From Gilvimarinus chinensis DSM 19667 (lineage in GTDB: Bacteria > Pseudomonadota > Gammaproteobacteria > Pseudomonadales > Cellvibrionaceae): a stretch of 32,000 nucleotides of DNA. Of this stretch, positions 1-32,000 are shown piece by piece. The notes beneath the pieces are model-generated. The model saw only the letters and a list, made by a program, of their open reading frames with translations, was not told the DNA's origin and searched no databases. The DNA lies in NCBI RefSeq assembly GCF_000377745.1, contig NZ_KB898707.1, positions 66,718-98,717 of the forward strand, in the 5' to 3' direction. Position 1 is the first letter of the stretch. Every line of letters starts with the position of its first letter. The translations under genes and the position numbers were made by a program.

Positions 1-1882
1 CAAATGGAAATTCCGGTTCGTGGCCGTAATCGAGATGATTAGAGGAGTTGCCAGGTGCATGTTGAAATACCCCCTGTTCAATGTCGCCAATGAGTGTGTA
101 ATTGTCCTCGGTTGCCGGGCGCCCGGTGGCCATACGATTGTAATAGATGGGGATTTGCCCTTCACCTTTAGGCCAGGTAATGGGCAGACGGCCCACCGGC
201 GAATAATCACCGTAGAGGACATCGACTAAAGCCGGCCCCGCCATGGTGCCGGGATGCCAAGCCATCATAATCGCATCAGACTGATCGAGTACCGGGCCCA
301 GCTCGATGGGCCGGCCAGCCATAATTACCGTCACCAGCGGCTTGCCTGTTTCGCTTAAGGCTTTTACCAGCTCCTGCTGCGCGCCAGGTAATGCTATATC
401 AGCGCGGCTGTGACCCTCGCCGGATAAAATAGACTCTTCGCCACCTACATATACGATTACGTCGGCTTGTTGTGCGGCTTCTACGGCTTTATTAAAGTTC
501 TGGGTCGATGTGTCGCGGCTATATTCCAGCCCTTTAACAAAGGTAAAGGACTCATTTCCGCCCAGATACTGCTCTAGAGCGGGCACCAGAGACACGGAGT
601 CTTTTTTGTCGCCATTGTAAATCCAGGTGCCCAGCTGTTCGTGGGGCACATTCGCCAGAGGTCCAACAAGAGCGATCTTGGCCTCTTTGTTCAGCGGCAA
701 CACAGAATTGTCGTTTTTGAGCAACACAAAGCTTTCACGCGCCGCTTCGCGGGCGGCTTGTCTGTGTTCATCGCTTAAAATGACAGTATCGCGATTGCCT
801 CTAGGGTAAGGGTTATCCCAGAGCCCGAGTCGCATTTTGATTCGGAGCATATGACGCACTGCCTGGTCCAACTTGGCCTCTGTGAATTTTCCCTCCTCGA
901 TTAATTCGGGCAAAAACTTCTGATAAGTATCGGTATACATTTCAAAGTCGATACCCGCGTTGGCGCTCAACTCGGCAGCATGTTTGGCGTCTCGGGCAAA
1001 GCCATGGGGCAGCATTTCCATAACGGCATTCCAGTCACTGACTACGAAGCCGTCAAAGCCCCACTCATCCCGTAGTATCGTTTTCAGCGCATGCTTATTA
1101 GCGGTGGCGGGGATATCGTTCAAGGTATTGTAAGAGCTCATAATAGTCATAAGGCCCGCGTCAACGGCCGCTTTAAAGGGCGGCAAGAAAATGTCGCGCA
1201 GTCTCGCCTCTGGTATATAGGCGGCGTTGTAATCGCGACCGGCCTCAGCTGCTCCATAGCCAATAAAGTGTTTGGCCGAGGCTGCCATAGCGTCTGGGCG
1301 CGTGGGGTCATCTGTTTGAAAGCCCATGGTCATGGCGACCCCGAGTACAGAAGCCAGATACGGGTCTTCACCCAGAGTCTCCGCTATCCGCCCCCAGCGA
1401 GGGTCATGGGATATGTCAATCATCGGGGCAAAAGTCCAGCGAATACCGTCTGTTGTGGCTTCCTTGGCGGCGATGCGTGCACCCTTTTTAACCAGCTCCG
1501 GGTTCCAGCTGGCTGCCTGGCCCAAAGGGATAGGGAAGATGGTTTCGTAGCCGTGTATGACATCTTGGCCAAAAATCAATGGTATGCCTTGTGGGCTTTC
1601 TTCCACGGCGATTTTTTGCAGTTCGGCAAAAGCATTATCGTCGACAGAAGAAAAACTGACGTTCAAAAAGCCGCCGACTTCACCCCGGCGAATTTGTGCT
1701 TTGAGTTCAGGTAGCTGTTCTGCGCTATAGGTGCCAAAGTCGCGGAGTGCGAGTTGTCCCACCTTTTGGTCTATGGTCATAGTCTCGAGCAAGACATCAA
1801 TACGGTTCTCGATGGCATCGGCGTTGGCGAATGAGGCGCCGATACACATGATCGGCAAAGCGAGATTCATTAGCTTTTTCAT
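1..1882 (-). CDS. Glycoside hydrolase family 3 beta-glucosidase (BglX-like), secreted; C-terminal end cut by the window edge
   Basis: Absent from the ORF track because it is open at the left edge. My minus-strand translation from ATG (1882-1880) reads MKKLMNLALPIMCIGASFANA (signal peptide), then TIDQKVGQL, GIPLIFGQDVIHG, WTFAPMIDISHDPRWGRIAETLGEDPYL, KHFIGYGAAEAGRDYN and ILRDEWGFDGFVVSDW (GH3 nucleophile motif). The second domain shows VGGEESILSGEGHSRADIALPGAQQELV and AWHPGTMAGPALVDVLYGDYSPVGRLPITWP. The frame stays open to position 2. Confidence 0.9.
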   Translation of the reverse strand, partial: MKKLMNLALPIMCIGASFANADAIENRIDVLLETMTIDQKVGQLALRDFGTYSAEQLPELKAQIRRGEVGGFLNVSFSSVDDNAFAELQKIAVEESPQGIPLIFGQDVIHGYETIFPIPLGQAASWNPELVKKGARIAAKEATTDGIRWTFAPMIDISHDPRWGRIAETLGEDPYLASVLGVAMTMGFQTDDPTRPDAMAASAKHFIGYGAAEAGRDYNAAYIPEARLRDIFLPPFKAAVDAGLMTIMSSYNTLNDIPATANKHALKTILRDEWGFDGFVVSDWNAVMEMLPHGFARDAKHAAELSANAGIDFEMYTDTYQKFLPELIEEGKFTEAKLDQAVRHMLRIKMRLGLWDNPYPRGNRDTVILSDEHRQAAREAARESFVLLKNDNSVLPLNKEAKIALVGPLANVPHEQLGTWIYNGDKKDSVSLVPALEQYLGGNESFTFVKGLEYSRDTSTQNFNKAVEAAQQADVIVYVGGEESILSGEGHSRADIALPGAQQELVKALSETGKPLVTVIMAGRPIELGPVLDQSDAIMMAWHPGTMAGPALVDVLYGDYSPVGRLPITWPKGEGQIPIYYNRMATGRPATEDNYTLIGDIEQGVFQHAPGNSSNHLDYGHEPEFPF

Positions 1883-2185
1883 AGGTGACTCCGTTATCTC
1901 GTCACTTCGTTATTTGTGAGCAGCGTATCGCTGAGTGAATGGCCCATAAAACAGGCCTGCCGGGACTATAGGGCGGGTAGGCTGCTGTGTCGTACGGGGA
2001 AAGCACTTTTCGGGTCGAACGCCCCTATATCCGCAAAGTTCGGCCTGCTGGCATTTATTCGAACCCGTTCTGGCTAATCAGCAGGAAATACGAACGCTTT
2101 TTTAGGGTTAGCAGGCTAGCCTGAACAGGCAGGGTAGCTATATGGGATAGGGTTATTCCCACAATAATAATATGAGGCGAGTTTT

Positions 2186-3895
2186 ATGATCTTGCGACGA
2201 CTTTATCTGTGTGGTTTGACCTGTTGCTTGGCAGCTTGTGGTGGAGGGACAAGTAATGGGGCATCACCGGTCTCTCCCGGCGGACCCTCGGATGTTCCCG
2301 ATCCGGCGCCTACCAAACTTTTTGTGGATCGCACTGACGAAACCGGTATTGAATTTCTGGCAGGCTACAAAACCTCCAAAGGCGTCAGCGATATTATGAA
2401 GTACTGTGGCGGTGTAGCCTCCGGTGATATAGATGGCGATGGTCTGGTGGATTTGTTCTTTATTAAGGGCGATATCGATCGGCCCGGCCTCTACTTAAAT
2501 GAAGGTAACAACCGTTATCGTGAGGTGGCGGCTGAATGGGGCGTCGATATTCAGGACCACAAAGGTTGTGGCCCGGCTTTCGCTGACGTTAATGGTGATG
2601 GTCGGTTGGACTTGTTTGTGGGGGGCATCGACGGTGACCGGAGTTATCTACTCGTACAGCAGAAAAATAACCTAGGGCAGTGGCGTTTTATTGATAAAAC
2701 CCAGGAGTACGGCTTGGCGGAGCTGGTTTCTCCCAATACGATTTCGGCTTCATTTGGCGATTACGATGGCGACGGCTGGCTGGATCTCTTTTTAGGCCAC
2801 TGGGGAACCCCGGAGTCGGTGCCCAAGGAACATTTGTGGCGCAACTTGAGTGGCGAGCGCTTTGAGAATGTTACCGCTGAGGCTGGGTTGGCACAGCATA
2901 TGATCCAGCAGCCTAATAATACGGCGGTACTAGGAGCGGGGGTGGATTACAGCTTTTCAGGTGCTTTTAGCGATATCAATAACGACCGCTGCCCGGACTT
3001 GCTGGTAATTGGCGACTTTACCACCTCTCAGGTGTTTTTAAACCGCTGCGATGGTGTGTTTGAAAAGTACCTTTCTGATGTGATTGATGTGGACAATGGT
3101 ATGGGGGGCGCCACTGGCGATCTGGACAACGATGGTGACCTGGATTGGTTTGTCAGCGGTATTGCCACAGCCGCAGGGCAGGGCAATCGCCTGTACCAGA
3201 ATAACCATCAATCGGCCCAAAGCTATGCCCAGATGTTTACGGATGTAAGCAAAGACAAAAACATTGTCGATGGAGGCTGGGGGTGGGGCGCGTGCTTTGC
3301 TGACTTCGACAATAACGGTTGGCTGGATATCTTTCATGTTAATGGTTGGCAGGCGGGGTTGTTCGGCTCCAGCTATGCAGACGATCGTTCGCGGCTCTAT
3401 ATGGCGCAGACGGATGCTGAATCTGCGTTCCCCCACTATCTCGAAAAATCCCTTGCCTTGGGAATTACTGATCGTACGCAAGGGCGTGGCGTGGTGTGCT
3501 TCGATTCGGACAATGACGGCGATGTGGATATTGTGACCGCCAACGGTATTTTCGATGAGGGCTTGATACCATTTAAATTTTATCAAAACACTCACGCCGA
3601 TGCGGGGGCAAGTAGCAGTCGCCATTTGCGTATTCAATTGCGCGGTGCCTATCCAAACACCGCCGCCATAGGCAGCAAAATTCTTGTGGTGTCTTCACGA
3701 ATGACGCAAATGCGGGAGGTTACGGCCAACAGTAACTTTGTCTCAAACAATCCCGCTATCCAATATGTGGGATTACCACAGGGCGATTCTGCCGAAACGA
3801 TAGAAGTCCGATGGCGAGATGGGCGTATCAGCGTGTTGCACGGCCCCTTTTCCGGTATGCACATCACCATTGACCACCCAGACCGTAAGTTTTGA
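2186..3895 (+). CDS. FG-GAP/VCBS-repeat lipoprotein with C-terminal ASPIC/UnbV domain (CRTAC1-like)
   Basis: 569 aa ORF with a lipoprotein signal peptide (LTCCLAAC-GGG). It has six calcium-binding FG-GAP-type repeats: GDIDGDGLVDLF, ADVNGDGRLDLF, GDYDGDGWLDLF, GDLDNDGDLDWF, ADFDNNGWLDIF and FDSDNDGDVDIV. The C-terminus (LRIQLRG..NTAAIGSKILV...EVRWRDG) is typical of ASPIC/UnbV. Confidence 0.8.
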   Translation: MILRRLYLCGLTCCLAACGGGTSNGASPVSPGGPSDVPDPAPTKLFVDRTDETGIEFLAGYKTSKGVSDIMKYCGGVASGDIDGDGLVDLFFIKGDIDRPGLYLNEGNNRYREVAAEWGVDIQDHKGCGPAFADVNGDGRLDLFVGGIDGDRSYLLVQQKNNLGQWRFIDKTQEYGLAELVSPNTISASFGDYDGDGWLDLFLGHWGTPESVPKEHLWRNLSGERFENVTAEAGLAQHMIQQPNNTAVLGAGVDYSFSGAFSDINNDRCPDLLVIGDFTTSQVFLNRCDGVFEKYLSDVIDVDNGMGGATGDLDNDGDLDWFVSGIATAAGQGNRLYQNNHQSAQSYAQMFTDVSKDKNIVDGGWGWGACFADFDNNGWLDIFHVNGWQAGLFGSSYADDRSRLYMAQTDAESAFPHYLEKSLALGITDRTQGRGVVCFDSDNDGDVDIVTANGIFDEGLIPFKFYQNTHADAGASSSRHLRIQLRGAYPNTAAIGSKILVVSSRMTQMREVTANSNFVSNNPAIQYVGLPQGDSAETIEVRWRDGRISVLHGPFSGMHITIDHPDRKF

Positions 3896-3903
3896 GGTTA
3901 ACC

Positions 3904-5887
3904 ATGCAAATAAAAAAAAAACATTCTATTAATAGCGGCCCTTGGGGCTTTGGTAACCGCTTGTGGCGGCAGTGGCGAGACAAGCGAAACCGTTGATGCG
4001 CCCCCGCCGCCACCCGCTACTCGTGAACCCCTTAGCGATGAAAAATCACCCTCGCTAGCTCGGCGCTGGAACGAGGTTTTGTTGGAGGCTATCCGCAATG
4101 ATTACGCGCGTCCGACTTCTCATGCGCGTAACCTTTTTCATTTGTCTGCGGTGATGTATGACGCCTGGACGGTATATTCAGATACGGAGAGCTCCTACTT
4201 GCTGGGGAAAACATTGAATGGTTTTTCCTGTCCATTCGATCGCGATGGCTTCACGGTTTATAGCGAGAAGGCTCGTGAAACGACCATAAGCTACGCGGCC
4301 TATCGTTTGATTACGCATCGATTTTCGCAGTCGCCGAGTGTTGCCTATACGCTATTGCAATCCAACAGATTGATGGAGACATTGGGGCTTAATCCTGAAC
4401 TGGCCACACCCAGTGCACAAAGCGGTGCCGCGGAGCTGGGCAATTACATCGCAGATTGCTACATTCGTTACGGCTTGCAGGACGGCTCCAATGAGGAAAA
4501 CGGCTATCAAAGCCGTTACTATCAGCCGGTTAATCCGCCCATCGCGCCCGCCGAGCCAGGCAATCCGGATGTGAATGACAGGGGGCGGTGGCAAGCGATT
4601 GAGCTGGAAACCTCTATTGATCAGTCTGGCAATCAGGTGTCTTCAGTCCCTAAGTTTATTGGGGCAGAGTGGGGCAATGTCTTGCCGTTTGCGCTGACTG
4701 AGTCGGATCGGCAGAGCCATCAGCGCGGTGGCCACACATACACCGTCTATCTCGACCCGGGCGAGCCTCCCTATCCCAATAGTCACTACCGGGAGATCTA
4801 TCAACGCACCTTCGCCTTGGTGGCTATCTGGGGTGCGCACCTGGACCCGGCAAAGACGCCCGTTATTGATATTTCGCCCGGCGCCCTGGGTAACCTGGAT
4901 ATAGACGAATTTCCCCGCGATTTTAGCGAATACGATCAGTTCTACTCGTTGTTTGCCGGTGGTGACCCTGGCAAAGGCCACGCTGTAAACCCTATTACCG
5001 GGCAATCTTATCCAAAGCAGGAAGTGCCTCTGGGCGATTATGCGCGAGTATTGGCAGAATTTTGGGCAGATGGCCCGGAATCGGAAACACCACCAGGGCA
5101 TTGGTTTGTCATTCTCAACCATGTGACTGACCACCCCGATTTTGAGCGTCGTCTCTGGGGCGCTGAATCTGTCGGGCCACTAGAGTGGGATATCAAAGCT
5201 TACTTTAGCCTCGGGGCGGCGATGCACGACTCGGCGGTGGCGGCCTGGAGTAACAAGGGCTGGTATGATTTTACCCGGCCCGTTTCAGCCATACGGGCCA
5301 TGGCGGATCTGGGACAATCCAGTGATCCTGCTGCGGCGTCTTATCACCCCGAGGGGCTGCCACTCTACCCAGGTTTTATCGAGCTGGTTAGGGAGGGGGA
5401 TCCGCTTGCGCAAAACCAGCCAGAGAACATTGGTAAAATTAAGCTCTATAGCTGGCGTGGCCCAGACTATATTGAATCGCCGCAAACCGATATTGCGGGG
5501 GTTGGGTGGATTTTGGCGGAAAACTGGTGGCCTTACCAGCGGCCAACATTTGTCACCCCGCCCTTTGCCGGCTATGTGTCGGGTCACTCTACCTTTTCCC
5601 GTGCGGCGGCGGAGGTCTTAACCGCGATAACCGGAAGTGAGTACTTCCCGGGTGGTATGGGCGAGTTTGAAGCACCGAAGAACGAATTTCTTGTCTTTGA
5701 GCGCGGGCCCAGCACCGACGTTACCTTGCAGTGGGCAACATACCGGGACGCGTCCGATCAATGCAGCTTGTCAAGAATCTGGGGTGGTATTCACCCGCCG
5801 GTGGATGATCTGCGAGGACGTTTTATGGGCGAGAAAGTCGCGCAAAAAGCCATAAACTTGGTGCAAGCAATGTTTGCTGGCGATTGA
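3904..5887 (+). CDS. PAP2-superfamily / vanadium-dependent haloperoxidase-like lipoprotein; 5' end out of frame with its apparent start because of an A10 tract (uninterrupted frame 3914-5887; track ORF 3950-5887)
   Basis: All three acid-phosphatase/V-haloperoxidase signature blocks are intact: KGWYDFTRP (K-x6-RP), VSGHST (xSGH) and SRIWGGIHPPVD (SR-x5-H-x3-D). The long frame encodes KKNILLIAALGALVTAC-GG (a lipobox) just after TAA 3911-3913. GAGG 3894-3897 plus ATG 3904 lie one frame off. Confidence 0.75.
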
Positions 5888-5930
5888 ATGCGGATTCGGT
5901 GGGGCCAGAGCCGTGAATCAGGGGCGGTAG

Positions 5931-5961
5931 GAGCATAAAGGCCTGGCAGGCCTTTATGCTC
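5931..5961. terminator. Hairpin between convergent genes (bidirectional terminator candidate)
   Basis: GAGCATAAAGGCC (5931-5943), TGGCA loop, then GGCCTTTATGCTC (5949-5961). This is a perfect 13 bp stem between the PAP2-like gene and the lyase-like gene. It has no long T run. Confidence 0.55.
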
Positions 5962-5999
5962 GTTGAGGTTATACGGATTTCGAAGATGTATTCACCGGA

Positions 6000-7487
6000 T
6001 TAATAGACTCTAACCTTGAGAAACTGACATCCATTGTTGGGTGTTATAAATAGGGTATTACCGGAGAAACTATCGGACGAAGCGTAGTTTCCAGTAACCT
6101 CAAGTTGTCCCGAGCCCGATTGGTCTTGAATGTTGCCACGGAAATTGCATTGACTGTTTGCGTCGCTATCCCATACCTGCAGAGTCCTGTTTTGCAGGTT
6201 TTCAGGGAAGGTAACACAGCTGGCAACGCCCAGCTCAATTTCGGTTCTTGTGTCCATTGCCATTTGCTCACAATTGTTCGCGCTACTCGAATTGCTACTG
6301 GAGCTACTGGAATTGTTTGAGCTGCTGCTAGAGCTGCTCAAGCTGGAAGACGATGCCTGGGAGCTGGATGAACTACTGCTTGAGCTTGTGGGGCTGCCGC
6401 CACATGAGCCATTTAATTCGTCGAAGCAGGGGTAAGGACCGTTGTTTGGCTGCTCAATTGATTGGTCTAGAGAGTAATCGATATTTCTGGTTTGATAATC
6501 TTTCCACACCAAAGTTGTCCCGCCATCCAAACGAGTATTGTTCGAAATGTGCATGGTAGGCTCTTGCGCTCGGAAGGTACCAGCCGAATAAGGCAGGTTA
6601 AACTCGTTATCGTAGATGTTTGAACGTTTGTGCTCACGATAGCTGTACACAGCATGAGTAATATTATCGTCGCCTTTGTAGTCCATAACGTTATTGCGCA
6701 CCAGAGCCTCATTACCTTTTAGGTCGATAAAGCTATCTGCTTGGGGGGAGGCCGATGTGCCTACGATACCCCGGGCATCTACATGGTTGTACTCAATGAC
6801 TGTCCCGGTAGTGCCCGCTTTAACATCAAAAGCCTCGGCAGTAACCCAGGGACCGATAGTGCAGCCGCCGATGGTGTTGTAATCGCTATTGTCGGGTGGG
6901 GATTCTTGATGACCGTTATTAGTGCCGACATACACCCCTTCACCGGTGCCTTCTTTACCCTCGCGCTTGCCTGTGTCGTGAATATAGCAATTGGTCAGCT
7001 TGTTGTAAGAGCTGCTATCGCGAAAGTGCACGGCTTCCTGGCCTACGTTATAAACTTCTACATTATCGATTAAGTTGTGATTCGCCCCTTCGAGCATGAT
7101 CCCTTTTTGTGCCCCGGTAAATTTCAGGTCTTTAACTTCCCAGTAATCCCCTTCGAGCAAAAGAACATACCCCGTATCAACGTTATCTCCTTTCAGAACC
7201 TGTTTGCTGGAGGTTGAAGCACTTCGTAAAACAATCGGGGAATTGGCAGTCCCGCTTTTGTCACTGAAAAAATGAGCTCGGCCTTCACCGCTTGTACTTC
7301 TGTTGCCCGTATATGAGCCCGCGTGAACCACAATTTCATCGCCAGGGCTTGCGCTTTTTAGCGCATTTTGGAGCTCTACTGAGTTATAAACTGGAAGGGT
7401 GGCTGCAAAGCTGGTTGTACTAACTAATGCGGTAGCAGCGATGAGAAGTTGTAACGAAGTCATATTTTTATGGTGTTGATTCTTCAT
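6000..7487 (-). CDS. Secreted right-handed parallel beta-helix polysaccharide lyase/hydrolase-like enzyme, poly-Ser linker and about 90 aa C-terminal Cys-containing (carbohydrate-binding?) module
   Basis: The track ORF is 6000-7499. I prefer ATG 7487 because GGAGG lies 5 nt upstream, giving MKNQHHKNMTSLQLLIAATALVSTTSFA-ATLP as the signal peptide. The N-terminal block VELQNALKSASPGDEIVVHAGSYTG is followed by repeated beta-helix turns (NHNLIDNVEVYN, YNKLTNCYIHD). A 43 aa Ser-rich linker precedes a 90 aa module with 4 Cys. The exact CAZy family was not determined. Confidence 0.6.
   Translation of the reverse strand: MKNQHHKNMTSLQLLIAATALVSTTSFAATLPVYNSVELQNALKSASPGDEIVVHAGSYTGNRSTSGEGRAHFFSDKSGTANSPIVLRSASTSSKQVLKGDNVDTGYVLLLEGDYWEVKDLKFTGAQKGIMLEGANHNLIDNVEVYNVGQEAVHFRDSSSYNKLTNCYIHDTGKREGKEGTGEGVYVGTNNGHQESPPDNSDYNTIGGCTIGPWVTAEAFDVKAGTTGTVIEYNHVDARGIVGTSASPQADSFIDLKGNEALVRNNVMDYKGDDNITHAVYSYREHKRSNIYDNEFNLPYSAGTFRAQEPTMHISNNTRLDGGTTLVWKDYQTRNIDYSLDQSIEQPNNGPYPCFDELNGSCGGSPTSSSSSSSSSQASSSSLSSSSSSSNNSSSSSSNSSSANNCEQMAMDTRTEIELGVASCVTFPENLQNRTLQVWDSDANSQCNFRGNIQDQSGSGQLEVTGNYASSDSFSGNTLFITPNNGCQFLKVRVY
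6273..6401 (-). repeat. Low-complexity poly-serine linker coding region
   Basis: Encodes GGSPTSSSSSSSSSQASSSSLSSSSSSSNNSSSSSSNSSSANN using mixed AGC/AGT/TCN codons. Coordinates are approximate to within a few nt. Confidence 0.85.
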
Positions 7488-7929
7488 TAGTGCCTCCATG
7501 GAGGGTAATTGGTAAGTGTTTTTTATGTTATTTGATTAAAAGTGCGCCATAAGTTGGTGCGAATTCAAATATAGTAAGGTGGCCTACTGGTAAGACCAAA
7601 GCAAGGCTAGTACGCCAACGGATGCGTGTCAATTTGTTCTGATGGTTTTGTATAGTGGTTCACTAATGAATGGTCTACTCACCCACCCGGCCAATAATTA
7701 TTGGCTGTGGTATGGGATATTTATTTAATTTTTTTCAATGAGTGACGACGTCGTGTAAATCGATTAGTTGCCACTTTCAGCGTGTTTTATCGAACACTTA
7801 GATTAGGCATTTTCGGTAAAGCGTGCTATTTGCTCGTTTTTTGTGACTTAATCGAGTTTTCATTTGGGCGTGAGCGGCTGAGCGTTGCAAAGCCTCGTGG
7901 GACTTGTCCCTGCAGCTCTCGGATAAGTA

Positions 7930-8241
7930 GAGGTAATTGTGGGTGATTTGCGGGTGGAAAAGGAGTCGTGTCAACCATGGATGTGTATCTTTGATACTGA
8001 AGGGCATCCACTGGTTGATGGCGGACTGGAATACTGGGGGCAAAACCTGCTTTAACGAGTCGGGTAAGCGTTGTTTTAAAGATTTTTGGGCTCACTCTTC
8101 CGACCAGTAAAAGCCGCGTTTAAAGCGTCTATTGACTGGGTGTTTGAACGCTGGCAGCGGGGACCTGCTATACATATTTACCATTATGCCAATTACGAGA
8201 TTGCCGCCTACCGCAAGTTAATGAGCCGGTATGGTGTGTAG
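7930..8241 (+). pseudogene. Remnant of a RecB-family (TM0106-type) nuclease gene, multiply frameshifted
   Basis: Three collinear fragments lie in different frames: WMCIFDTEGHPLVDGGLEYWGQNLL(stop), DFWAHSSDQ(stop) and RPVKAAFKASIDWVFERWQRGPAIHIYHYANYEIAAYRKLMSRYGV(stop 8239-8241). The fDxEg...eYL, FWAh and IYHYxxYE...L..ryg blocks match my memory of that family. Only about 100 of the several hundred expected residues remain. Confidence 0.55.
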
Positions 8242-8436: not shown

Positions 8437-9417
8437 TTAATAGTAACGTCTCTCTATCTGAGATCCGTTAAAAGTGCCCAATATTTCTGTTTCCACACGG
8501 TCAGATCGTTTTTTTCGTCGCACACGCGCATCAAAGTCTTTAATAGGCGTACTGGTAAGTGGTTGATTTTGCAAGATAATAATAGGCATTACGGCAGTAA
8601 CTGTTTGCGTGGTGTTACGCATCAGGTTGGCCACAGGTTGTACCCGCACATCCCGCCTAAGTCTTAATTGTTCCGGTGGTACGGGGCCAATACTTTCTAT
8701 GAGTTGCTTTAGCGGGAGTCCCGCTATCTCGTCACGGTTTAAAGCCTCCGCTTCAATTCGCTCTATCAGTTGTTGTTTGCCCTTCAAGTCCAGTTTGCTC
8801 AGAAGCTGCTTTCTTTCCCAACTGAACCCCAGGTTGCGAATATCTTCGCTCATAAAACACTTAATTGTTCGGTATAGATGGACTGTCATTATGCTGCTGC
8901 GAACCTCGCGAAGCGCTTTGAAGCGAGCTTGCCGGGAGGGTAGGGCGGTTATTTTTTGCCGTAGAGAGACTTTGTGCTGGTTAATGTTATCTACGCAATT
9001 GAGAAGCTTCTGAAGCTGATCGTTAGGGGTGTTGTGCGGTTGGATCCAAATCACTCCCACACGTCTTCTGGCGATTTTTTGGGATAGACCTTTCTTGATA
9101 TAGAGGTCCTGGAAGCTTCGGATGGCCTCTTCAATGGCGTCGTGGGCATGAACTGTTTCACCCGTAATCCTACTTACTGGGCTATCTTCCTGGCCTTTTA
9201 TAGCATCGGGAAGCTTTGTCACAAAAGCACAGCTTGATTCGATGCTTCTGAGCACTTGGGCCAACTGTGTAAGTCCCTCGTCAAGTTTACGAAAATGATC
9301 AGATATATCGCTTTGCGAGGATGACGGAGCAATAAGTTCAAACGGTTTGTCTTTCAATTTATGACTCCTAGAAGCATTTACTCTCGATAATACATCCATT
9401 AGACCAACATGCAACAT
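8437..9417 (-). CDS. tus: Tus-like DNA replication terminus site-binding protein homolog
   Basis: 326 aa, collinear with E. coli Tus as I recall it. The matching blocks (window / Tus) are: VTKLPDAIKGQEDSPVSRI / VFSLPEVKKEDEHNPLNRI; RRVGVIWIQPHN / RLPGVLCYQVDN; LPSRQARF...VHLYRTIK / LPTAARF...LNAYRTLT; LGFSWERKQLLSKL / LRFGWANKHIIKNL; RRDVRVQPVANL / KRPVKVQPIARV; MPIIILQN / TPLIALIN. Offsets stay within 16-28 residues throughout. An alternative start at ATG 9399 (MDVLSRV) would place the Ter-like repeat just upstream. Confidence 0.7.
   Translation of the reverse strand: MLHVGLMDVLSRVNASRSHKLKDKPFELIAPSSSQSDISDHFRKLDEGLTQLAQVLRSIESSCAFVTKLPDAIKGQEDSPVSRITGETVHAHDAIEEAIRSFQDLYIKKGLSQKIARRRVGVIWIQPHNTPNDQLQKLLNCVDNINQHKVSLRQKITALPSRQARFKALREVRSSIMTVHLYRTIKCFMSEDIRNLGFSWERKQLLSKLDLKGKQQLIERIEAEALNRDEIAGLPLKQLIESIGPVPPEQLRLRRDVRVQPVANLMRNTTQTVTAVMPIIILQNQPLTSTPIKDFDARVRRKKRSDRVETEILGTFNGSQIERRYY
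9399..9414 (-). promoter_or_regulatory. Ter-like 16-mer, left arm of inverted pair (reads TTGCATGTTGGTCTAA on the minus strand)
   Basis: Perfect reverse complement of 9513-9528. It contains GCATGTTG, matching G-N-ATGTTG of the E. coli Ter core (GTATGTTGTAACTAA), and CTAA displaced by 1 nt. It abuts or overlaps the start of the tus-like gene. Confidence 0.5.
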
Positions 9418-9512
9418 TGTTTTTAGATGGCAATATCAGTTCTGTTTAACTTTTTAAATGAGATTCGGTAAATGGTTAAACAGAGTGTAGGGTTTTATGT
9501 TATTGCCACCTT

Positions 9513-9528
9513 TTGCATGTTGGTCTAA
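9513..9528 (+). promoter_or_regulatory. Ter-like 16-mer, right arm of inverted pair (TTGCATGTTGGTCTAA)
   Basis: Perfect inverted copy of 9399-9414, with 98 bp between the arms. Nested inner inverted repeats are GGCAATA/TATTGCC and CTGTTTAAC/GTTAAACAG. Confidence 0.5.
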
Positions 9529-9678
9529 AGTTTGGGTTCCAGCGAATAATTCTGCTCGTTGAGAGGATCGTAGCTTCTTAGGTCACCATTAGTTGCCTTG
9601 GGGGTGGCGATATAACTTACGGTGTTTAGGCGTCCCAAGCTCACTCTATTAATATAAATAAAGACTAATATATTGTCC

Positions 9679-9706
9679 TTTAAATCAATAAAATAGCTGG
9701 TATAAT
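9679..9706 (+). promoter_or_regulatory. Candidate sigma70 promoter for hipA (extended -10)
   Basis: TGGTATAAT at 9698-9706 is a TGn extended -10 with a perfect TATAAT. The weak -35 is TTTAAA at 9679-9684. It lies only about 15 nt before ATG 9721, so the mRNA would be near-leaderless or the true start is the downstream Met at 9739. Confidence 0.4.
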
Positions 9707-9720
9707 GTTCTGTAAATTCG

Positions 9721-10995
9721 ATGGCGCCTGAGCTTTATATGCAGAGAAAACCCTACTCGCGGTGTTACGTATTCGCCGTAGACCCTCTTGGCAAAACAAG
9801 CCTTGCTGGGGAGTTAGAAATGATGCGCGCCGGGGGCAGTTTTAAATATAGTGCCTCGTGGCTGGCACGCGTTGATCGCTACGCGCTTGACCCAGAAAAC
9901 TTGCCTTTAGTGCCTGAGAAACAGTATTGCGATAACACGAATGGAGTGTTTCCGGTCTTTTCCGATGCGGGACCCGATGACTGGGGTAACCGGGTTATGT
10001 TGCAGCGGCATGAAAGCCAACCGCGCAATGAGATAGAACGGTTACTACGTACCAGCGGTACTGGTGTGGGTGCATTGCGCTTCTCTTTGTCTCGCACCCG
10101 CCCCAAACCTCCGCCCCCAGCACAAGATATTGCCCTGCTGGAAAGGCTCGCGGTTGCGGCTGAGTCAATTGAAAAGGCCGATGAGCTAAGTCCAGATGAA
10201 TTTAAACTGATTGAGCATGGCTCTTCCATGGGCGGCGCCAGGCCCAAAGCAGTCGTAGCCGATGGTGAGAAAGAGTACATCGTAAAATTCTCTAAGCAAG
10301 GCGACCTGCTACAGGATTTACCTCGGGTGGAATTCGCCACGATGACTTTACTGGCCAAAGCGGGTCTAAACGTCCCCGAGGTTAGAATCCAGAAAATCGG
10401 TGCCGACCGCACTGCGTATCTTATTCGCCGATTCGATGTCGACGCTGGTAAAGTAGTGCGTCATTACTTATCCGCCCACGCTCTTTTCAACAAAGAGCGT
10501 CACAAAAAGTACGCCGATGGTCATAACGACGATCGGGGCTATATCGCCCTCAGCCGAAAAATCCGTAGTCATTGTCAAAACCCCACCCAAGATTGCGGCG
10601 AACTGTTTGATCGCATTGTTGCCAATGTTTTGCTGGGCAATTCCGATGACCACCCCCGCAATCACGGTTTTGTCTACGATCTAGATCATGGCCATTGGAG
10701 CCTGGCGCCACTTTTCGATGTTGTGCCCATACTTTCTTCAATCGCGAAACCTCAAGCTATGACCATTGGAACCGACGGATACGAGCCCTCGGTAGCCAAC
10801 ATACTAAGCTGTGCTCAGGCTTTCGGGCTTACTCAGCAGGACGCGCTTAAACGAATAGCTGGGTTTATTGAGATTATGGCCACCTGGGAGGAACACTACC
10901 AATCTTGCGGCGTTCCTGCCGCTGATATCCGCCAGCTCCATAGGCTAATTGGTACGAGGGTTAAAGAAGCCCGAGAAGCGCTTGAACAAATTTGA
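9721..10995 (+). CDS. hipA: HipA-family serine/threonine kinase toxin (type II TA)
   Basis: 424 aa. The N-terminal coupling region reads SFKYSASWL...LPL...FPVFSDAGPDDWGNRVM. Other motifs are the Gly-rich loop SSMGGARPKAVV, the catalytic loop GNSDDHPRNHGFVY and the Mg-binding LAPLFDVVP. Confidence 0.9.
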   Translation: MAPELYMQRKPYSRCYVFAVDPLGKTSLAGELEMMRAGGSFKYSASWLARVDRYALDPENLPLVPEKQYCDNTNGVFPVFSDAGPDDWGNRVMLQRHESQPRNEIERLLRTSGTGVGALRFSLSRTRPKPPPPAQDIALLERLAVAAESIEKADELSPDEFKLIEHGSSMGGARPKAVVADGEKEYIVKFSKQGDLLQDLPRVEFATMTLLAKAGLNVPEVRIQKIGADRTAYLIRRFDVDAGKVVRHYLSAHALFNKERHKKYADGHNDDRGYIALSRKIRSHCQNPTQDCGELFDRIVANVLLGNSDDHPRNHGFVYDLDHGHWSLAPLFDVVPILSSIAKPQAMTIGTDGYEPSVANILSCAQAFGLTQQDALKRIAGFIEIMATWEEHYQSCGVPAADIRQLHRLIGTRVKEAREALEQI

Positions 10996-11029
10996 TAGTG
11001 AGCTGGATTGCAGTAAAGGTACAAATACC

Positions 11030-11329
11030 ATGGCCGAAAAAAAATACTTAGCCTCACTCAGCGAAGAGGCCCGAAACTCTCTAGAGATACTCGGAGAGAA
11101 CATTGCAATCGCCCGTAAAGCCCGCGGTTGGAGTCAAAAAGAAGCTGCGGAGCGATTTCAGATGAGTAAAACAACTTTGGTCGCCGTAGAGAAAGGCGAC
11201 CCTAAATCAAGCATAGGCTCTTACCTTGCTGCACTCGATATCATGAACCTACTTGATGGTTTAGACAGTATTGCCGCTTCCCATCGCGACCCTATAACGC
11301 GAGCGGCAAAGATCAGCCCAAGACGATAA
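11030..11329 (+). CDS. XRE-family helix-turn-helix protein (putative HipB-like antitoxin/regulator) encoded downstream of hipA
   Basis: ATG 11030 is in frame within track ORF 10949-11329, with AAAGG about 10 nt upstream. The HTH reads IARKARGWSQKEAAERFQMSKTTLVAVEKGDP. It starts 34 nt after the hipA stop. Confidence 0.85.
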   Translation: MAEKKYLASLSEEARNSLEILGENIAIARKARGWSQKEAAERFQMSKTTLVAVEKGDPKSSIGSYLAALDIMNLLDGLDSIAASHRDPITRAAKISPRR

Positions 11330-14148: not shown

Positions 14149-14505
14149 ATGATTTTGTTTACTGCAACCTATGATTCTAGAGAGTATAGTCATATCAAAG
14201 AGGAAACTAAAGTAAGGCTTTATGACCTGGGAAAGGCGCTAGCTCTTTATAGTAGAGATTATGGTCGGTACCCAAGTTCGGAGCAAGGGAGCGGAGAGTT
14301 AGTTGGTTACGAGAAAAGGTATGTCAGGTATCTGATTGATTCCGACGCGTGGGGAAATAGATTTATTTATTTGGAGCCTCCAAAGGCTGATATGCCTTTT
14401 AATTTATATTCAAAAGGTAAAAATCAAACTGATGAACGTGGAGGCGGAGACGATATTAGTTATTGGAAAGTAAAACCTGAACTTGACGAGGCTTTCAGAG
14501 AGTAG
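14149..14505 (+). CDS. GspG-like (type II secretion major pseudopilin) globular domain without prepilin leader; probably a gene remnant
   Basis: LGKALALYSRDYGRYPSSEQG...DAWGNRFIYLEP...FNLYSKGKNQTDERGGGDDISYW fits the T2SS G C-terminal domain pattern (Y..d.G.YP...qGL..L......DpWG..Y.Y......y.l.S.G.Dg......DI.nW). An in-frame TGA lies just upstream, within what looks like the hydrophobic N-terminal helix (RGSLLGLG-stop-ILISMILF). Confidence 0.55.
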   Translation: MILFTATYDSREYSHIKEETKVRLYDLGKALALYSRDYGRYPSSEQGSGELVGYEKRYVRYLIDSDAWGNRFIYLEPPKADMPFNLYSKGKNQTDERGGGDDISYWKVKPELDEAFRE

Positions 14506-14753: not shown

Positions 14754-15926
14754 TTATCTATCTGAGTCCCACGGAATCTGAGGCACAGGCTCTCTCGGTT
14801 GGTCCCACGCCAGCTTTTTAGTAAGTTCCGCCATTCCACCGCGTTTCGCCTGAATACGCTTGGCGTATTGAGTCAGCATCGCCATGGATTTCCAGCGTCC
14901 GGACAGCATAATCTTTGCCGAATCCACATTCCCTTCGACCATCTCCTGCGCCGCGCCCACGCGGTTTGAGTGCCCGGAGAACACCGAAGGCTCCAACCCT
15001 AACCGACCGGCCGTACGTTTAAAACAGCGCGACACACCGCGCTCCGACAGGCGATTGCCCATTTTGCCGCTGGAATAAATGCCTCGAAAAATTGCCCCAG
15101 AACTCTGCCCACTGCGACGCTGCCAACCCAGGAGCAAATCCGTGGTGTTGCGAGAGAGGTACAGATACGAGCCATCACCGTCCTGATCGGTTTTGTGCCA
15201 ATCGAGTTCCAGTAAGCTGGAGCCATCCGAATCGATGCGCAGGTCCTCCCAATCAAAGCGCACCAGCTCAGACTGACGGCATAAAGTTTCAAAGCCGACG
15301 AAGAGTAGGGCGATGTCTTGGCAATCGCGCGCAATAGCGGGGTCGAACAACGAGAGTGCTTGTTCCAGGTGAGCCACCCGCAGGCCTTCGGCCTGGCGCC
15401 GTTTATTTTTCACCATTTTGCGAATACGGCCGAGTCGATTTCTCACTTTAAACGAGGCGCGCGGATCATCCATCTCCATGGCATTAGCCCACGCGACAAG
15501 ACTGGACACTCGACGATCAATGGCCGAGCGCTTACGACCCTCAGCCATCATATGCGAAAGGTAGGCATCCACGGCATAATCCTCGAACGGCAGCGGCGGA
15601 TAACCCATCCGCACACAGTACTCGACGTACTGACACAGATCGCTGTAGCGGGCGATTTCCGTGTTATTGGGAACCGTGTCCAGCATGTCCATTGAGCGCC
15701 GATCAAAACGTTCAAACAGCTCCCACGACAATACTGGCTGCAAGCTCTTCAGCAAACGATCTCGGTAGCTCGCAATTTTTAATTGATGGGGCGTTTTTCG
15801 CGGAATAATCGCTTGGGCGTCCAGCGTACCATTGACCCGGTGGTCAGAGCGCTGCTTCACGTTCTTTTTACCCGCGGCGACCCGAGCGGCGTTTTTGTCG
15901 CGGCGCTCCGAAGGAAATTCGCTCAT
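14754..15926 (-). CDS. Tyrosine site-specific recombinase (phage-type integrase)
   Basis: 390 aa. The catalytic signature is FETLCRQSEL (Arg I), GHSNRVGAAQEMV (H-x-x-R) and SGRWKSMAMLTQY (W/H ... Tyr nucleophile). It sits at the right edge of the island. Confidence 0.9.
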   Translation of the reverse strand: MSEFPSERRDKNAARVAAGKKNVKQRSDHRVNGTLDAQAIIPRKTPHQLKIASYRDRLLKSLQPVLSWELFERFDRRSMDMLDTVPNNTEIARYSDLCQYVEYCVRMGYPPLPFEDYAVDAYLSHMMAEGRKRSAIDRRVSSLVAWANAMEMDDPRASFKVRNRLGRIRKMVKNKRRQAEGLRVAHLEQALSLFDPAIARDCQDIALLFVGFETLCRQSELVRFDWEDLRIDSDGSSLLELDWHKTDQDGDGSYLYLSRNTTDLLLGWQRRSGQSSGAIFRGIYSSGKMGNRLSERGVSRCFKRTAGRLGLEPSVFSGHSNRVGAAQEMVEGNVDSAKIMLSGRWKSMAMLTQYAKRIQAKRGGMAELTKKLAWDQPREPVPQIPWDSDR

Positions 15927-16105
15927 TCAACGGCTTCTCACATGTGGTTAATTATTGACCGCATAGTGCCATTTTTACTTATATGTGTCAAATAAGTACA
16001 ATTATAGGACATATATAAAGTAAAGTAGAAAAATTATTTTTTCGACACATCTTTAATGCTTACTCGAACAGTCGTAAAAATGACCAAAATCACATTTTCA
16101 TGATG

Positions 16106-16129
16106 TTTTGTATACAATATATAGTATAC
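16106..16129. promoter_or_regulatory. Candidate operator: TTTTGTATACAAT plus a second GTATAC 14 bp away, upstream of the GH16 agarase gene
   Basis: GTATAC palindromes lie at 16110-16115 and 16124-16129. The 13-mer TTTTGTATACAAT is identical to 30197-30209. Related sites are at 7645-7656, 20318-20329 and 30031-30056. Confidence 0.4.
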
Positions 16130-16182
16130 ATATTAGGATGCATCCTCCGCTCCAAGATCATAATAACGTTAGAGAGGCACAG

Positions 16183-17946: not shown

Positions 17947-17959
17947 ACATTGTTAACCC

Positions 17960-17982
17960 GGTGCGACTTTACCAGTCGCACC
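17960..17982. terminator. Hairpin between convergent genes
   Basis: GGTGCGACT (17960-17968), TTACC loop, AGTCGCACC (17974-17982). It lies 14 nt after the GH16 stop and has no T run. Confidence 0.45.
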
Positions 17983-18038
17983 CTCACCCCTCCGTCTTAG
18001 CTCGCCGCAAACGCTTAAAAAATCTTTTTATGTCGCGG

Positions 18039-20231: not shown

Positions 20232-20317
20232 CGAAATCTCCCATAAACAGCCCGAGGATAACTCATCGACAGACTGTTAAGTCTTGTTAATTTGTGTTTG
20301 ACTATCGCACACCGCAC

Positions 20318-20344
20318 TTTGTAGACAATTTACATTGTGTCAAT
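20318..20344. promoter_or_regulatory. Degenerate copies of the TTGTATACAA-type palindrome upstream of the GH50-like gene
   Basis: TTTGTAGACAAT (20318-20329) differs by one nt from the 12-mer at 16107-16118. ATTGTGTCAAT lies at 20334-20344. Confidence 0.3.
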
Positions 20345-20400
20345 TTTATCTAATATAAACACCAGCAACTATCAATTTACCGCTCATAAAGGAAATAAAA

Positions 20401-22719: not shown

Positions 22720-22737
22720 CCGCTTGGGCTCACTTTA

Positions 22738-22762
22738 CCCCGCCCACGGGCGGGGTCTTTTT
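22738..22762 (+). terminator. Rho-independent terminator after the GH50-like gene
   Basis: CCCCGCCC (22738-22745) pairs with GGGCGGGG (22748-22755), followed by TCTTTTT (22756-22762). Confidence 0.8.
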
Positions 22763-22801
22763 AATCGTGTTGCCGTGTAAGCGTATTTCCTTTTAACCGT
22801 A

Positions 22802-25180: not shown

Positions 25181-25181
25181 G

Positions 25182-25880: not shown

Positions 25881-25900
25881 CGTTTATCCTTATTATTTTG

Positions 25901-26557: not shown

Positions 26558-26575
26558 GTTTCACCTCAATATCAA

Positions 26576-30016: not shown

Positions 30017-30196
30017 TATCAATTCTCCACATAGTTATACTTTTACGTATAGCTATTAACAGCCAAAATTTAATTATTAAAGCTTATGATTCTTGAGCGC
30101 AAAGTCGGTTGAAGAGAGTGACATAATAACCCTCACCCCGAATCCGAACTTTGGTCGATTTGCGTCCGCCATTTCTAATACTTTATCCCACACCCA

Positions 30197-30244
30197 TTTT
30201 GTATACAATCTTCTATTGACAATGATTGTATTATCTTCGATTAT
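30197..30244 (+). promoter_or_regulatory. Candidate operator (TTTTGTATACAAT) next to a candidate promoter of the TonB-dependent receptor gene
   Basis: The 13-mer at 30197-30209 is identical to 16106-16118. TTGACA lies at 30216-30221, then a 17 nt spacer, then GATTAT at 30239-30244. Confidence 0.35.
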
Positions 30245-30362
30245 CTACATTGGGACACAAAGAATGCGGGCTAATACCGATAAACCGCGCCCTACTTGCT
30301 AATCTTCGTCATAGTTTTGGCGGTTAAAGCATAAAAATAATGAACAATCAGAGAGGTCAGAG

Positions 30363-32000
30363 ATGTCTAACATCACCCAACGCTTCAAATTGACCGCGCT
30401 TTCGGCTGCCATACTGGCCAGCCACGGGATAGGCGCCTACGCTCAAACAGATTCAGACCCTGCTGCCGATGAACTGGTACTTGAAGAAGTCGTGGTTCGT
30501 GGTATCCGCGGCGCGCTGCAAAAGTCCATCGACAATAAACGCGATGCTCAGCAGATAATGGATACCATTAACTCTGAGGATATGGGTAAAAACACCGACC
30601 AAAACATTGCCGATGCTCTGGGTCGCGTTACCGGTGTTTCCGTGGTAAGCCGAGATGGTGAAGGCTCGACCATTACCGTCCGTGGTGCTGGTGCGAACCA
30701 AAACAACATTACTCTGAACGGCCAACAACTGACCTCCACTGACTTTAGCCAGGCGGTCGATCTAAGCGCTTATTCATCGGATATTCTTTCTAAACTGGAG
30801 GTGATTAAAACACCTAGCGCAGACCAAGACGAAGGCTCGCTGGGGGCGACCGTGAACCTGGTCACCGTGCGTCCGCTTGACAAAGCCGATGACGAGTTCA
30901 CCGCGACGATTCAGGGGCGCTACAACGACTTTAGTGAAAAAGATAACTACAAACTGCAATTGGCGGGCTCTAAAAAGTTTCTTGATGACACTTTTGGTGT
31001 TGCCTTAACCGCTTATACAGAAACCAACGATTATCGAAAAGATCAGTATCGAACAGGAAAATGGGAAGAACAAGATATAAATATTGCACGTGACCAAGAT
31101 GGCAATATCATCTCTGGAATCCGTGCGCTTACTCCAAGCGGCATAAACTATGAGCTCTTTGATAATTCCAGTGAACGCTACGGTGGTACCGTAGGCTTAC
31201 AATGGGCTCCCACCCACCGTACCGAGCTTAGCTTTGACGCGACCTATGCCAACCAAACAACCGAACAAAACTATGACGGTTTTTCGCTGCGCATGGGTAC
31301 TGACCCAAACTTGATCGAAAATCAAAATTGGAGCCAAAACTACCCCGATCAGGTCGCTAGTTTTACCGACCCTCAAGAAGATTGGTGGACCGTAGATACC
31401 AATACTCTTACCTTAGTCGAACAAGTTAACCGCTATAGCATTGGCGACATAACCCGCTCCGAAGGTGGCAATGAGCAAGAAAATGCTAGCGCCACCCTTC
31501 GCTTTGAACAAGAAATTACCGACAAGTTTCGCATGTCGGCCATGGCCGGTTACTCCAGCAGTACATCTGAGAGCCTACCAAGCCGCTACACCAACATGCA
31601 AAACTGGAAACAAGTACCTTCCAACATTCTGTTTGAAGCAGGTCAAGAAATTGAACCAGTAGGCTATCAATGTCATGGCGATGTTTGCACCCCAGTATTT
31701 GGTAGCAGCTACGTCGACCTGGGTGACAACCTTTTAGACTTCACCGACCCAGAAACTGGCTTACCTTTGCCAGGCTCTGACGATAATACCGCTTACACCG
31801 GCTTCAACCCAAATGACTTAAACAGTTTCCATTTAGGCAGTATTTCAGAAGCCGACGTAACCGTAGAAGACACCATCAGCAATGTGCAACTGGACTTCGA
31901 TTACGATTTAGATTTTGCTGGTATTACCACCATCGAGTTTGGAGGCAAAATAAGCCAGCGTGAAAAACTCGTCGATCAACAAAACTACACCTACAACTCT
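30363..32000 (+). CDS. TonB-dependent outer-membrane receptor (carbohydrate-scavenging type), C-terminus beyond the window
   Basis: Absent from the track because it is open at the right edge. My translation from ATG 30363 (RBS AGAGAGG) reads MSNITQRFKLTALSAAILASHGIGAYA (signal peptide), then the plug domain LEEVVVRGIRGALQKSIDNKRDAQQIMDTINSEDMGKNTDQNIADALGRVTGVSVVSRDGEGSTITVRGAGANQNNITLNG. The frame is open to 32000. Confidence 0.9.
   Translation, partial: MSNITQRFKLTALSAAILASHGIGAYAQTDSDPAADELVLEEVVVRGIRGALQKSIDNKRDAQQIMDTINSEDMGKNTDQNIADALGRVTGVSVVSRDGEGSTITVRGAGANQNNITLNGQQLTSTDFSQAVDLSAYSSDILSKLEVIKTPSADQDEGSLGATVNLVTVRPLDKADDEFTATIQGRYNDFSEKDNYKLQLAGSKKFLDDTFGVALTAYTETNDYRKDQYRTGKWEEQDINIARDQDGNIISGIRALTPSGINYELFDNSSERYGGTVGLQWAPTHRTELSFDATYANQTTEQNYDGFSLRMGTDPNLIENQNWSQNYPDQVASFTDPQEDWWTVDTNTLTLVEQVNRYSIGDITRSEGGNEQENASATLRFEQEITDKFRMSAMAGYSSSTSESLPSRYTNMQNWKQVPSNILFEAGQEIEPVGYQCHGDVCTPVFGSSYVDLGDNLLDFTDPETGLPLPGSDDNTAYTGFNPNDLNSFHLGSISEADVTVEDTISNVQLDFDYDLDFAGITTIEFGGKISQREKLVDQQNYTYNS

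Follow-up and report, generated by a model that had tools for sequence, protein, structure and literature searches.

A Tus homolog with an inverted pair of Ter-like sites in Gilvimarinus chinensis, a candidate compact replication fork trap

The tus locus and its gene product

An earlier reading of a 32,000-nucleotide stretch of the Gilvimarinus chinensis DSM 19667 genome (contig NZ_KB898707.1, positions 66,718 to 98,717; this whole stretch is called the window here, and coordinates refer to it unless another locus is named), made from the sequence alone, had noticed an open reading frame (ORF) resembling Tus, the replication terminator protein of Escherichia coli. It had assigned the ORF to an integrative island in a non-enteric marine bacterium, and we followed up this sequence-only reading by computational analysis. 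The host is indeed a non-enteric marine gammaproteobacterium of the family Cellvibrionaceae (order Cellvibrionales). The locus comprises a tus gene, two copies of a Ter-like 16-mer directly upstream of it, and a divergent hipA-like kinase gene followed by a helix-turn-helix (HTH) gene (Table 1).

The Pfam profile PF05472 ("Ter," DNA replication terminus site-binding protein) matched the gene product over profile positions 2 to 283 of 296 with 123.3 bits against a cutoff of 22 (E = 1.4e-35), and a phmmer search against the PDB matched E. coli Tus chains (E = 7e-12). The proposed collinearity with E. coli Tus holds over residues 39 to 271, including the DNA-contacting segment RRDVRVQPVANL versus KRPVKVQPIARV, at an overall identity of about 21 to 24%. 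An AlphaFold2 model, for which 13 homologs served as input, had a mean predicted local distance difference test (pLDDT) score of 87.2 and a predicted template modeling (pTM) score of 0.76. When the model was submitted to Foldseek, the sole significant PDB matches were the Tus chains 4xr1, 4xr2, 4xr0, and 1ecr, from four Tus-DNA entries, with E values of 2e-19 to 8e-18 and template modeling (TM) scores of 0.64 to 0.67 (about 0.66). The DNA-contacting strand RxxVQP is kept, and its residues R235, V239, Q240, and P241 (R232...V236-Q237-P238 in E. coli) are invariant in 16 aligned sequences including that of E. coli. Among the residues that lock cytosine C(6), E. coli E49, I79, and F140 are likewise kept, as E57, I87, and F146. 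Sequence and predicted fold together identify the product as a true Tus-family protein, so that a known family is genuinely represented in a host order that is new for it. That this genome encodes a Tus homolog is not new, since the gene had already been annotated automatically: a 100% identical NCBI entry of 306 amino acids carries the name "DNA replication terminus site-binding protein" for Gilvimarinus chinensis.

The ORF first described, 8437..9417 on the minus strand, encodes 326 amino acids from an ATG at 9417. The TTG at 9357 is the probable start, because the NCBI protein has the corresponding length, the N termini of the homologs align there, and an AGGAG motif lies 7 nucleotides upstream. 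The 326-amino-acid ORF is therefore probably overlong by 20 codons, and we prefer the 306-amino-acid gene model. With this start codon, the proximal 16-mer lies upstream of tus and not inside the gene.

Table 1. Features of the tus locus in the window and inverted Ter-like pairs on other replicons
Feature	Replicon or locus	Position	Strand	Basis and remarks
tus coding sequence	window	8437..9357	-	306 amino acids; probable start TTG at 9357-9355
Putative ribosome-binding site AGGAG	window	9365..9369	-	sequence reading; 7 nucleotides 5' of TTG
Proximal Ter-like site TTGCATGTTGGTCTAA	window	9399..9414	-	exact match; tus sense strand, 42 bp before start codon
Spacer between sites	window	9415..9512	.	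98 bp; AT-rich; likely tus promoter location; palindrome at 9441-9484
Distal Ter-like site, exact inverted copy of TTGCATGTTGGTCTAA	window	9513..9528	+	exact match and inverted-repeat search
hipA-like kinase gene	window	9721-10995	+	Pfam HipA_C (3.8e-44) and Couple_hipA; divergent from tus, outside Tus-Ter unit
HTH gene after hipA	window	~11027-11329	+	Pfam HTH_3
Tyrosine recombinase gene	window	14754..15926	-	Pfam Phage_integrase (9.3e-12); far edge of AT-rich stretch
Third Ter-like sequence TTGCATGTTGGTGTAG	window	31586..31601	-	2 mismatches to TTGCATGTTGGTCTAA; within TonB-dependent receptor gene
Inverted pair GCATGATGGTCTAA	Tara Oceans (marine metagenome) contig with traF/traH/traG; IncC plasmid; Vibrio plasmid	upstream of tus
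Inverted pair GCATGATGGTCTAG	Pseudoalteromonas plasmid	upstream of tus
Inverted pair TTGTATGTTGGCATAT	E. coli MOBH plasmid pT82A (L014)	2782-2797 and 2940-2955		between rep gene and tus
Inverted pair AGTATGATGTGTTC	Pseudoalteromonas xiamenensis 919-kb chromid NZ_CP099918.1 (L012)	2859-2876 and 2968-2985		tus beside repA

Ter-like 16-mers upstream of tus

Exactly two perfect copies of the 16-mer TTGCATGTTGGTCTAA are present in the window, and they form an inverted pair with arms 98 bp apart. Shuffled sequences gave a mean of 0.30 matches per window at up to 3 mismatches. The site has G-A-T-G-T-T-G in common with E. coli Ter core positions 6 and 8 to 13; a search with the E. coli Ter core pattern itself returned only meaningless one-mismatch matches. 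The intergenic DNA at 9358-9720 has a G+C content of 0.36. A sigma-70 promoter scan revealed no strong site within the spacer, and the best candidates for the tus promoter either overlap the distal site or are located upstream of it (9679-9651, minus strand).

The spacer also contains a palindrome with the arms CTGTTTAAC and GTTAAACAG at 9441-9456 and 9469-9484, and a second inverted repeat (9475-9496 and 9747-9768) joins the spacer to the first hipA codons. Both may serve as operators for the HTH protein.

A third Ter-like sequence, at 31586-31601, was considered as a backup Ter and rejected because of its 2 mismatches, its intragenic position, and its orientation, which would halt forks entering the trap. 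The TonB-dependent receptor gene in which it lies extends over window positions 30363-34046 (2512-6195 of locus L011). The sequence resembles the nonfunctional pseudo-Ter sites of E. coli and is probably a pseudo-site as well. We did not count it in the trap.

Conservation of gene and sites in Gilvimarinus

Among 5.8 billion proteins searched, close relatives of the G. chinensis protein were found in only two other Gilvimarinus lineages, with 66% and 52% identity. The three Gilvimarinus proteins share 50 to 66% mutual identity and have at most 42% identity to anything else. A search of genome contigs with the three-sequence alignment recovered only the two Gilvimarinus genomes that were already known, and a metagenome scan gave no match. 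Because only three lineages were found, tus is perhaps missing from other Gilvimarinus species.

The tus ORF is intact in all three lineages. Synonymous sites are saturated between them (proportion of synonymous differences, pS, 0.72 to 0.80), while the ratio of nonsynonymous to synonymous differences (pN/pS) is 0.28 to 0.43. The same 14- to 16-mer was found at the same relative place and in the same orientation in loci L001, L002, L003, and L004. Every Gilvimarinus locus has the inverted pair upstream of tus, and its proximal copy is always on the sense strand of tus and thus oriented like TerB of E. coli. Both 14- to 16-mers are identical in the three lineages, and the intergenic DNA is otherwise unalignable between species except at these two Ter arms. 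Saturated pS, low pN/pS, and identical sites amid unalignable DNA indicate that the gene and the sites are jointly under purifying selection. The spacing of the pair is 89, 98, or 210 bp among the Gilvimarinus loci, which argues against an operator of fixed geometry and for two independent polar sites. From these comparisons it is well supported that the repeats adjacent to tus behave like cognate Ter sites to which Tus would bind; the pair is kept in three lineages and, as a variant, on plasmids.

The hipA pair and a CBM6 gene are common neighbors in two of the three lineages, while the opposite flank is not conserved. Locus L003 has the Ter pair without hipA. In L001, an extra intact Ter copy at 6919-6932 (minus strand), with a decayed partner at about 6990-7010, lies upstream of hipA, 3 kb from the pair at tus. 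The extra L001 segment is homologous to the spacer in the window, and its intact copy is oriented as a backup to the distal site.

Relatives on plasmids and chromids

A HMMER search of 1.8 billion representative proteins yielded 145 relatives, the nearest of which (about 40% identity) come from Shewanella, Alcanivorax, Photobacterium, and a metagenome-assembled genome labeled Rhodospirillaceae. The nearest relatives outside Gilvimarinus are plasmid Tus proteins, with 39 to 42% identity. Using tblastn, we found a homolog on 1331 plasmids (PLSDB records), which are mostly conjugative; those examined are IncC or MOBH/MPF_F plasmids, and conjugative plasmids with the gene occur in Klebsiella, Salmonella, E. 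coli, Vibrio, Shewanella, and Pseudoalteromonas. Plasmid tus genes have an integrase gene and an exonuclease gene upstream and a kfrA-like DNA-binding gene, uvrD, and traF-traH-traG downstream. The tus gene in the window is chromosomal and has no such plasmid neighbors.

An inverted Ter-like pair precedes tus in six of the seven other replicons examined, with arms 91 to 196 bp apart and the proximal copy again in TerB orientation. The remaining one, the 254-kb Citrobacter freundii plasmid NZ_CP048383.1 (L013), shows no inverted pair upstream of tus (2863-3015), and its tus gene lies directly after umuDC. The pair with the motif GCATGATGGTCTAA is found on IncC/MOBH conjugative plasmids (loci L016, L005, L007, L008, and L015). 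In the complete 46-kb IncC plasmid NZ_CP020513.1 (L016), the only copies of the motif are at 10765-10778 (minus strand) and 10975-10988 (plus strand). Both there and in Gilvimarinus, the pair consists of inverted GCATG(A/T)TGGTCTAA sites, with a single-base difference (T for A) in the Gilvimarinus site. Site motif and Tus clade covary (GCATGTTGGTCTAA, GCATGATGGTCTAA, GTATGTTGGCATAT, and GTATGATGTGTTC, with GTATGTTGTAACTA in E. coli). Since the site sequence shifts with the clade while the layout stays constant, this is the pattern expected of a protein and its cognate sites that travel as a unit.

On the P. xiamenensis chromid, whose type of Tus is 28% identical to the protein from the window, the AGTATGATGTGTTC pair, which departs further from the Gilvimarinus sites than the one-base variant of the plasmids does, is a candidate Ter for the Pseudoalteromonas chromid. 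A third, partial Ter-like copy is located there at 2794-2805. In sequence, the pT82A variant TTGTATGTTGGCATAT falls between the Ter of E. coli and the site of Gilvimarinus. A long CT-rich tract between the arms is common to the IncC and Pseudoalteromonas plasmids and is missing in Gilvimarinus.

GC skew around the pair

A change of GC skew from positive to negative is the signature of converging replication forks. In the window, the skew is +0.066 to the left of the pair and -0.043 to the right, and in L001 the corresponding values are +0.043 and -0.051, with the cumulative maximum about 0.9 kb from the pair. When calculated per gene, the skew is positive for all genes up to and including tus and negative for all genes from 14754 rightwards, on either coding strand. 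In a 4.5-kb rightward extension of the window, it is negative over most of the length. All five copies of the FtsK-orienting polar sequence (KOPS) motif GGGNAGGG point towards the pair, where the E. coli KOPS is assumed to be valid for this order. The switch of skew at the locus in two species is suggestive, and it fits a chromosome terminus better than a trap of a mobile element.

Neighborhood of the locus

The sequence-only reading had described an integrative island. An AT-richer stretch does adjoin tus: the G+C content is lowered across about 7 to 15 kb, and this region contains the hipA-HTH pair, other HTH or antitoxin-like ORFs, and the tyrosine recombinase. However, we found no tRNA gene in the window, a repeat search of it gave no convincing att-like flanking direct repeats, and no tra or other transfer genes and no rep, uvrD, or kfrA-like genes are present in it. 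As had been stated before, the window also shows no replication initiator.

The genes next to each other at the locus also differ in age. The hipA-HTH pair of G. chinensis is 89% identical in nucleotide sequence to that of Gilvimarinus sp. 2_MG-2023 (92% for the HipA protein), whereas between the same two species tus is 71% identical in nucleotide and 66% in amino acid sequence and the neighboring CBM6 protein is 68% identical. Because tus is so much more diverged than hipA, and to the same degree as the CBM6 gene, it does not lie in recently moved DNA. The identity pattern suggests that recent exchange was limited to the hipA toxin-antitoxin pair. The high hipA identity starts about 8 nucleotides inside the hipA ORF (window position 9728), with none upstream; in L001 the pair occupies 5032-6632. 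In this pair the kinase gene precedes its HTH partner instead of following it.

Between tus and a beta-helix lyase gene, short ORF fragments at 8086-8241 (plus strand) and 7780-8100 resemble gene debris, and one of them has a weak match to the RNase_H superfamily (E = 0.06). Such debris is consistent with a decayed insertion zone on the flank of tus that faces away from hipA. Both flanks of the window (1-7500 and 16100-32000) encode polysaccharide degradation, with genes for FG-GAP/ASPIC proteins, a beta-helix lyase with a long serine-rich linker, CBM6/CBM35 proteins, an agarase-CBM glycoside hydrolase, and DUF7133-cytochrome c proteins, a content that is typical of the chromosome of agar-degrading Cellvibrionaceae. 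PADLOC and additional Pfam scans of the ORFs in the island region gave nothing informative.

A possible two-way fork trap of about 100 bp

We consider it probable that the locus is a plasmid-derived, self-regulating Tus-Ter pair that acts as a chromosomal fork trap of about 100 bp. Tus binds its asymmetric site as a monomer, and in E. coli a fork arriving at the G(6) end is arrested while one from the other end passes. In Gilvimarinus, a Tus of the plasmid-type clade would bind the two inverted 16-mers as its cognate Ter sites. If the E. coli polarity applies, the minus-strand site at 9399-9414 would block forks moving towards lower coordinates and the plus-strand site at 9513-9528 those moving towards higher coordinates. 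A rightward fork would then run past 9399-9414 and halt at 9513, and a leftward fork would run past 9513-9528 and halt at 9414, so that forks from either side could enter the 98-bp interval and none could leave it. The later fork would come upon the occupied site from its permissive side and fuse with the stalled fork, so that termination would be limited to about 130 bp. In E. coli, Tus represses its own gene via TerB. By analogy, Tus would limit its own synthesis in Gilvimarinus when bound at these sites, which lie around the tus promoter or downstream of it; the geometry of this autoregulation remains conjectural, because the best promoter candidates lie upstream of the distal site or overlap it.

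We propose that a plasmid module may have been taken over as the terminus trap of the chromosome, because the unit matches that of IncC/MOBH plasmids yet sits in the chromosome where the skew changes sign. In E. coli, a single nonpermissive TerB could not be inserted ectopically (Toft et al. 2021, PMC8707476). A two-way chromosomal barrier would be tolerable only at the terminus, which fits the skew evidence.

Several observations weigh against a chromosomal fork trap. The gene was found in only three Gilvimarinus lineages among the 5.8 billion proteins, and its flanks carry an integrase, toxin-antitoxin genes, and transposase fragments. In the lock pocket, H144 of E. coli is replaced by arginine (R150) and G149 by serine (S155), and the R198 segment is absent; the R150 position is R or K in most of this Tus clade. 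The protein also misses the NCBIfam equivalog cutoffs, with 69.1 versus 178.3 bits for TIGR02648, the chromosomal type, and 276.8 versus 323 bits for NF002810, the best NCBIfam model; by its sequence it belongs to the Tus family but in a separate subclade. The skew evidence spans just 21 to 37 kb per species and is unclear for the third lineage. In the window, the cumulative skew maximum lies at 14.6 kb, within DNA that looks foreign, instead of coinciding exactly with the pair. This displacement can be ascribed to the extreme skew (+0.32) of an isolated ORF at 14149-14505 (plus strand; G+C content of 0.40) resembling the type II secretion pseudopilin T2SSG. No credible dif site was detected from -9 to +27 kb of the pair (36.5 kb) in searches with the E. 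coli 28-mer at up to 9 mismatches and with its arms only, and the 774-kb contig may be a secondary replicon.

The strongest competing explanation, which takes up the main idea of the sequence-only reading, places the Tus-Ter unit in an integrated mobile element or in what is left of an integrated IncC-like plasmid or integrative and conjugative element. The unit would serve that element as its own terminus or for insulation, or else would persist as a self-regulating relic without a role in chromosome termination. The plasmid relatives with their like pair, the patchy occurrence of tus within the genus, and the low-G+C surroundings with integrase, toxin-antitoxin genes, and transposase fragments would all agree with this. 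Against it, the rep, tra, uvrD, and kfrA-like genes that mark the plasmid loci are missing around tus, as are a tRNA gene and att repeats; tus is far older than the adjacent hipA pair and has diverged like its chromosomal neighbor. Purifying selection on tus and the perfect preservation of both sites in three lineages also speak against it, and an active two-way barrier in a chromosome could be tolerated only at a terminus, with which the coincidence of skew switch and pair agrees. We therefore regard such an element-serving unit or relic as unlikely, although its probability is not negligible.

It had also been suggested that Tus was co-opted as a site-specific regulator of the divergent hipA gene. 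In this explanation the two sites would be operators for tus and the hipA operon without a role in replication, and their position in the tus-hipA intergenic region, the TerB-mediated self-repression known from E. coli, and the extra L001 copy with its decayed partner, both still found about 300 bp before hipA although that gene is 3 kb from tus in L001, would be in keeping with it. The predicted hipA promoter (9679-9706), however, is about 150 bp beyond the distal site. Like pairs occur on plasmids and a chromid where hipA is not beside tus, as well as in L003 without hipA, and a spacing that varies from 89 to 210 bp is unsuited to a shared operator geometry. A role in hipA regulation is therefore not specifically supported and seems improbable to us. 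A domesticated plasmid fork trap explains the locus better than either an integrative island or the regulation of hipA does. That tus is an inactive leftover, with the repeats arising by chance or as a recombination by-product, would agree with the missed NCBIfam cutoffs and the two changed lock-pocket residues but is highly improbable, given an intact ORF in three lineages, pN/pS values of 0.28 to 0.43 at saturated pS, and two 16-mers kept identical in otherwise unalignable DNA with a chance expectation well below one match per window.

A wider proposal, which we put forward only tentatively and at slightly less than even chances, builds on the probable fork trap. Gilvimarinus, in the Cellvibrionales, would be the fourth case in which Tus was independently domesticated by a chromosome, here by capture of a ready-made plasmid cassette that makes a trap about 100 bp wide, and the same kind of pair would also be the Ter of IncC-type plasmids and Pseudoalteromonas chromids. 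The three known domestications are those of Enterobacterales, Aeromonadales, and the Pseudoalteromonas chromid, and the narrowest trap described so far spans at least 18 kb. Galli et al. (2019, PMC6549158) reported resident tus genes only in Enterobacterales, Aeromonadales, and Pseudoalteromonas (on the second chromosome), classed all other tus genes as mobile and often plasmid borne, and proposed domestication from plasmids. The locus described here is a concrete intermediate in this respect: conjugative plasmids carry the same compact unit of tus and two opposed sites as a chromosome does where its GC skew switches. Toft et al. (2021, PMC8707476) proposed two sites for the "ancestral" chromosomal trap. 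If our proposal is true, it shows how a chromosome can gain a trap in one step, and it would offer a natural, minimal, point-like terminus for studies of fork fusion. From the analysis also come sequences that are candidates for Ter on IncC plasmids and Pseudoalteromonas chromids. On the latter, ter was not found with the E. coli consensus (Xie et al. 2021, PMC7858055), and it is still marked with a question mark in a 2023 review (PMC10331603). In the literature that we searched, we found no description of a tus-linked inverted pair, an IncC Ter, or a Gilvimarinus Tus.

Comparison with known terminator systems

The chromosomal "type II" trap of E. coli shares family and fold with the system proposed here, and in MG1655 TerB is found 11 bp upstream of the tus ATG and on the sense strand of the gene, the strand that also bears the proximal site in Gilvimarinus. 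The two differ at site positions 14 to 18, in the lock-pocket replacements H144 to R and G149 to S, and in the R198 segment missing here. Only one E. coli site adjoins tus, and the other nine are scattered over about 2 Mb; in Gilvimarinus the opposed partner is 98 bp away.

Another parallel arose by convergence. In Bacillus subtilis, the rtp gene adjoins a closely spaced, opposed TerI/TerII (IRI/IRII) pair and is also autoregulatory, and a paper of 1993 by Ahn et al. is said to deal with this autoregulation. As in Gilvimarinus, a terminator gene is found beside a close, opposed pair of its own sites; RTP itself is an unrelated winged-helix dimer.

The terminus of plasmid R6K reportedly contains two polar sites that form a 20-bp inverted repeat, a finding attributed to Horiuchi and Hidaka in 1988. 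Both R6K forks are blocked at a specific terminus (review, PMC10331603). R6K thus resembles the Gilvimarinus locus in having two close, opposed Ter sites as a compact two-way trap, but it uses the Tus of its host, carries no tus gene, and has sites that follow the E. coli Ter consensus.

The "type I" traps of non-Enterobacteriaceae Enterobacterales, regarded as ancestral and described for Edwardsiella tarda and Dickeya paradisiaca (Toft et al. 2021, PMC8707476), have one Ter beside tus and the opposing site 18 to 56 kb away. They share with the Gilvimarinus locus an innermost Ter vicinal to tus and a minimal set of two sites, and they sit at a sharp switch of GC skew, as the Gilvimarinus locus would. 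They span 18 to 56 kb instead of 98 bp with both sites upstream of tus, and they differ in Tus clade and order. The chromid tus of Pseudoalteromonas ("resident" clade 2, PMC6549158) is likewise found in a marine non-enteric host, on a large replicon, and behind an inverted Ter-like pair. It lies beside repA and the origin and is tied to unidirectional replication, whereas the Gilvimarinus gene has no rep gene in its vicinity and a skew that points to converging forks.

The tus loci of IncC and other MOBH/MPF_F plasmids are the closest in sequence and have the same inverted pair upstream with the proximal copy in TerB orientation. Unlike them, the Gilvimarinus tus gene is chromosomal and stands without the integrase and exonuclease genes on one side and the kfrA-like, uvrD, and traFHG genes on the other that accompany it on the plasmids.

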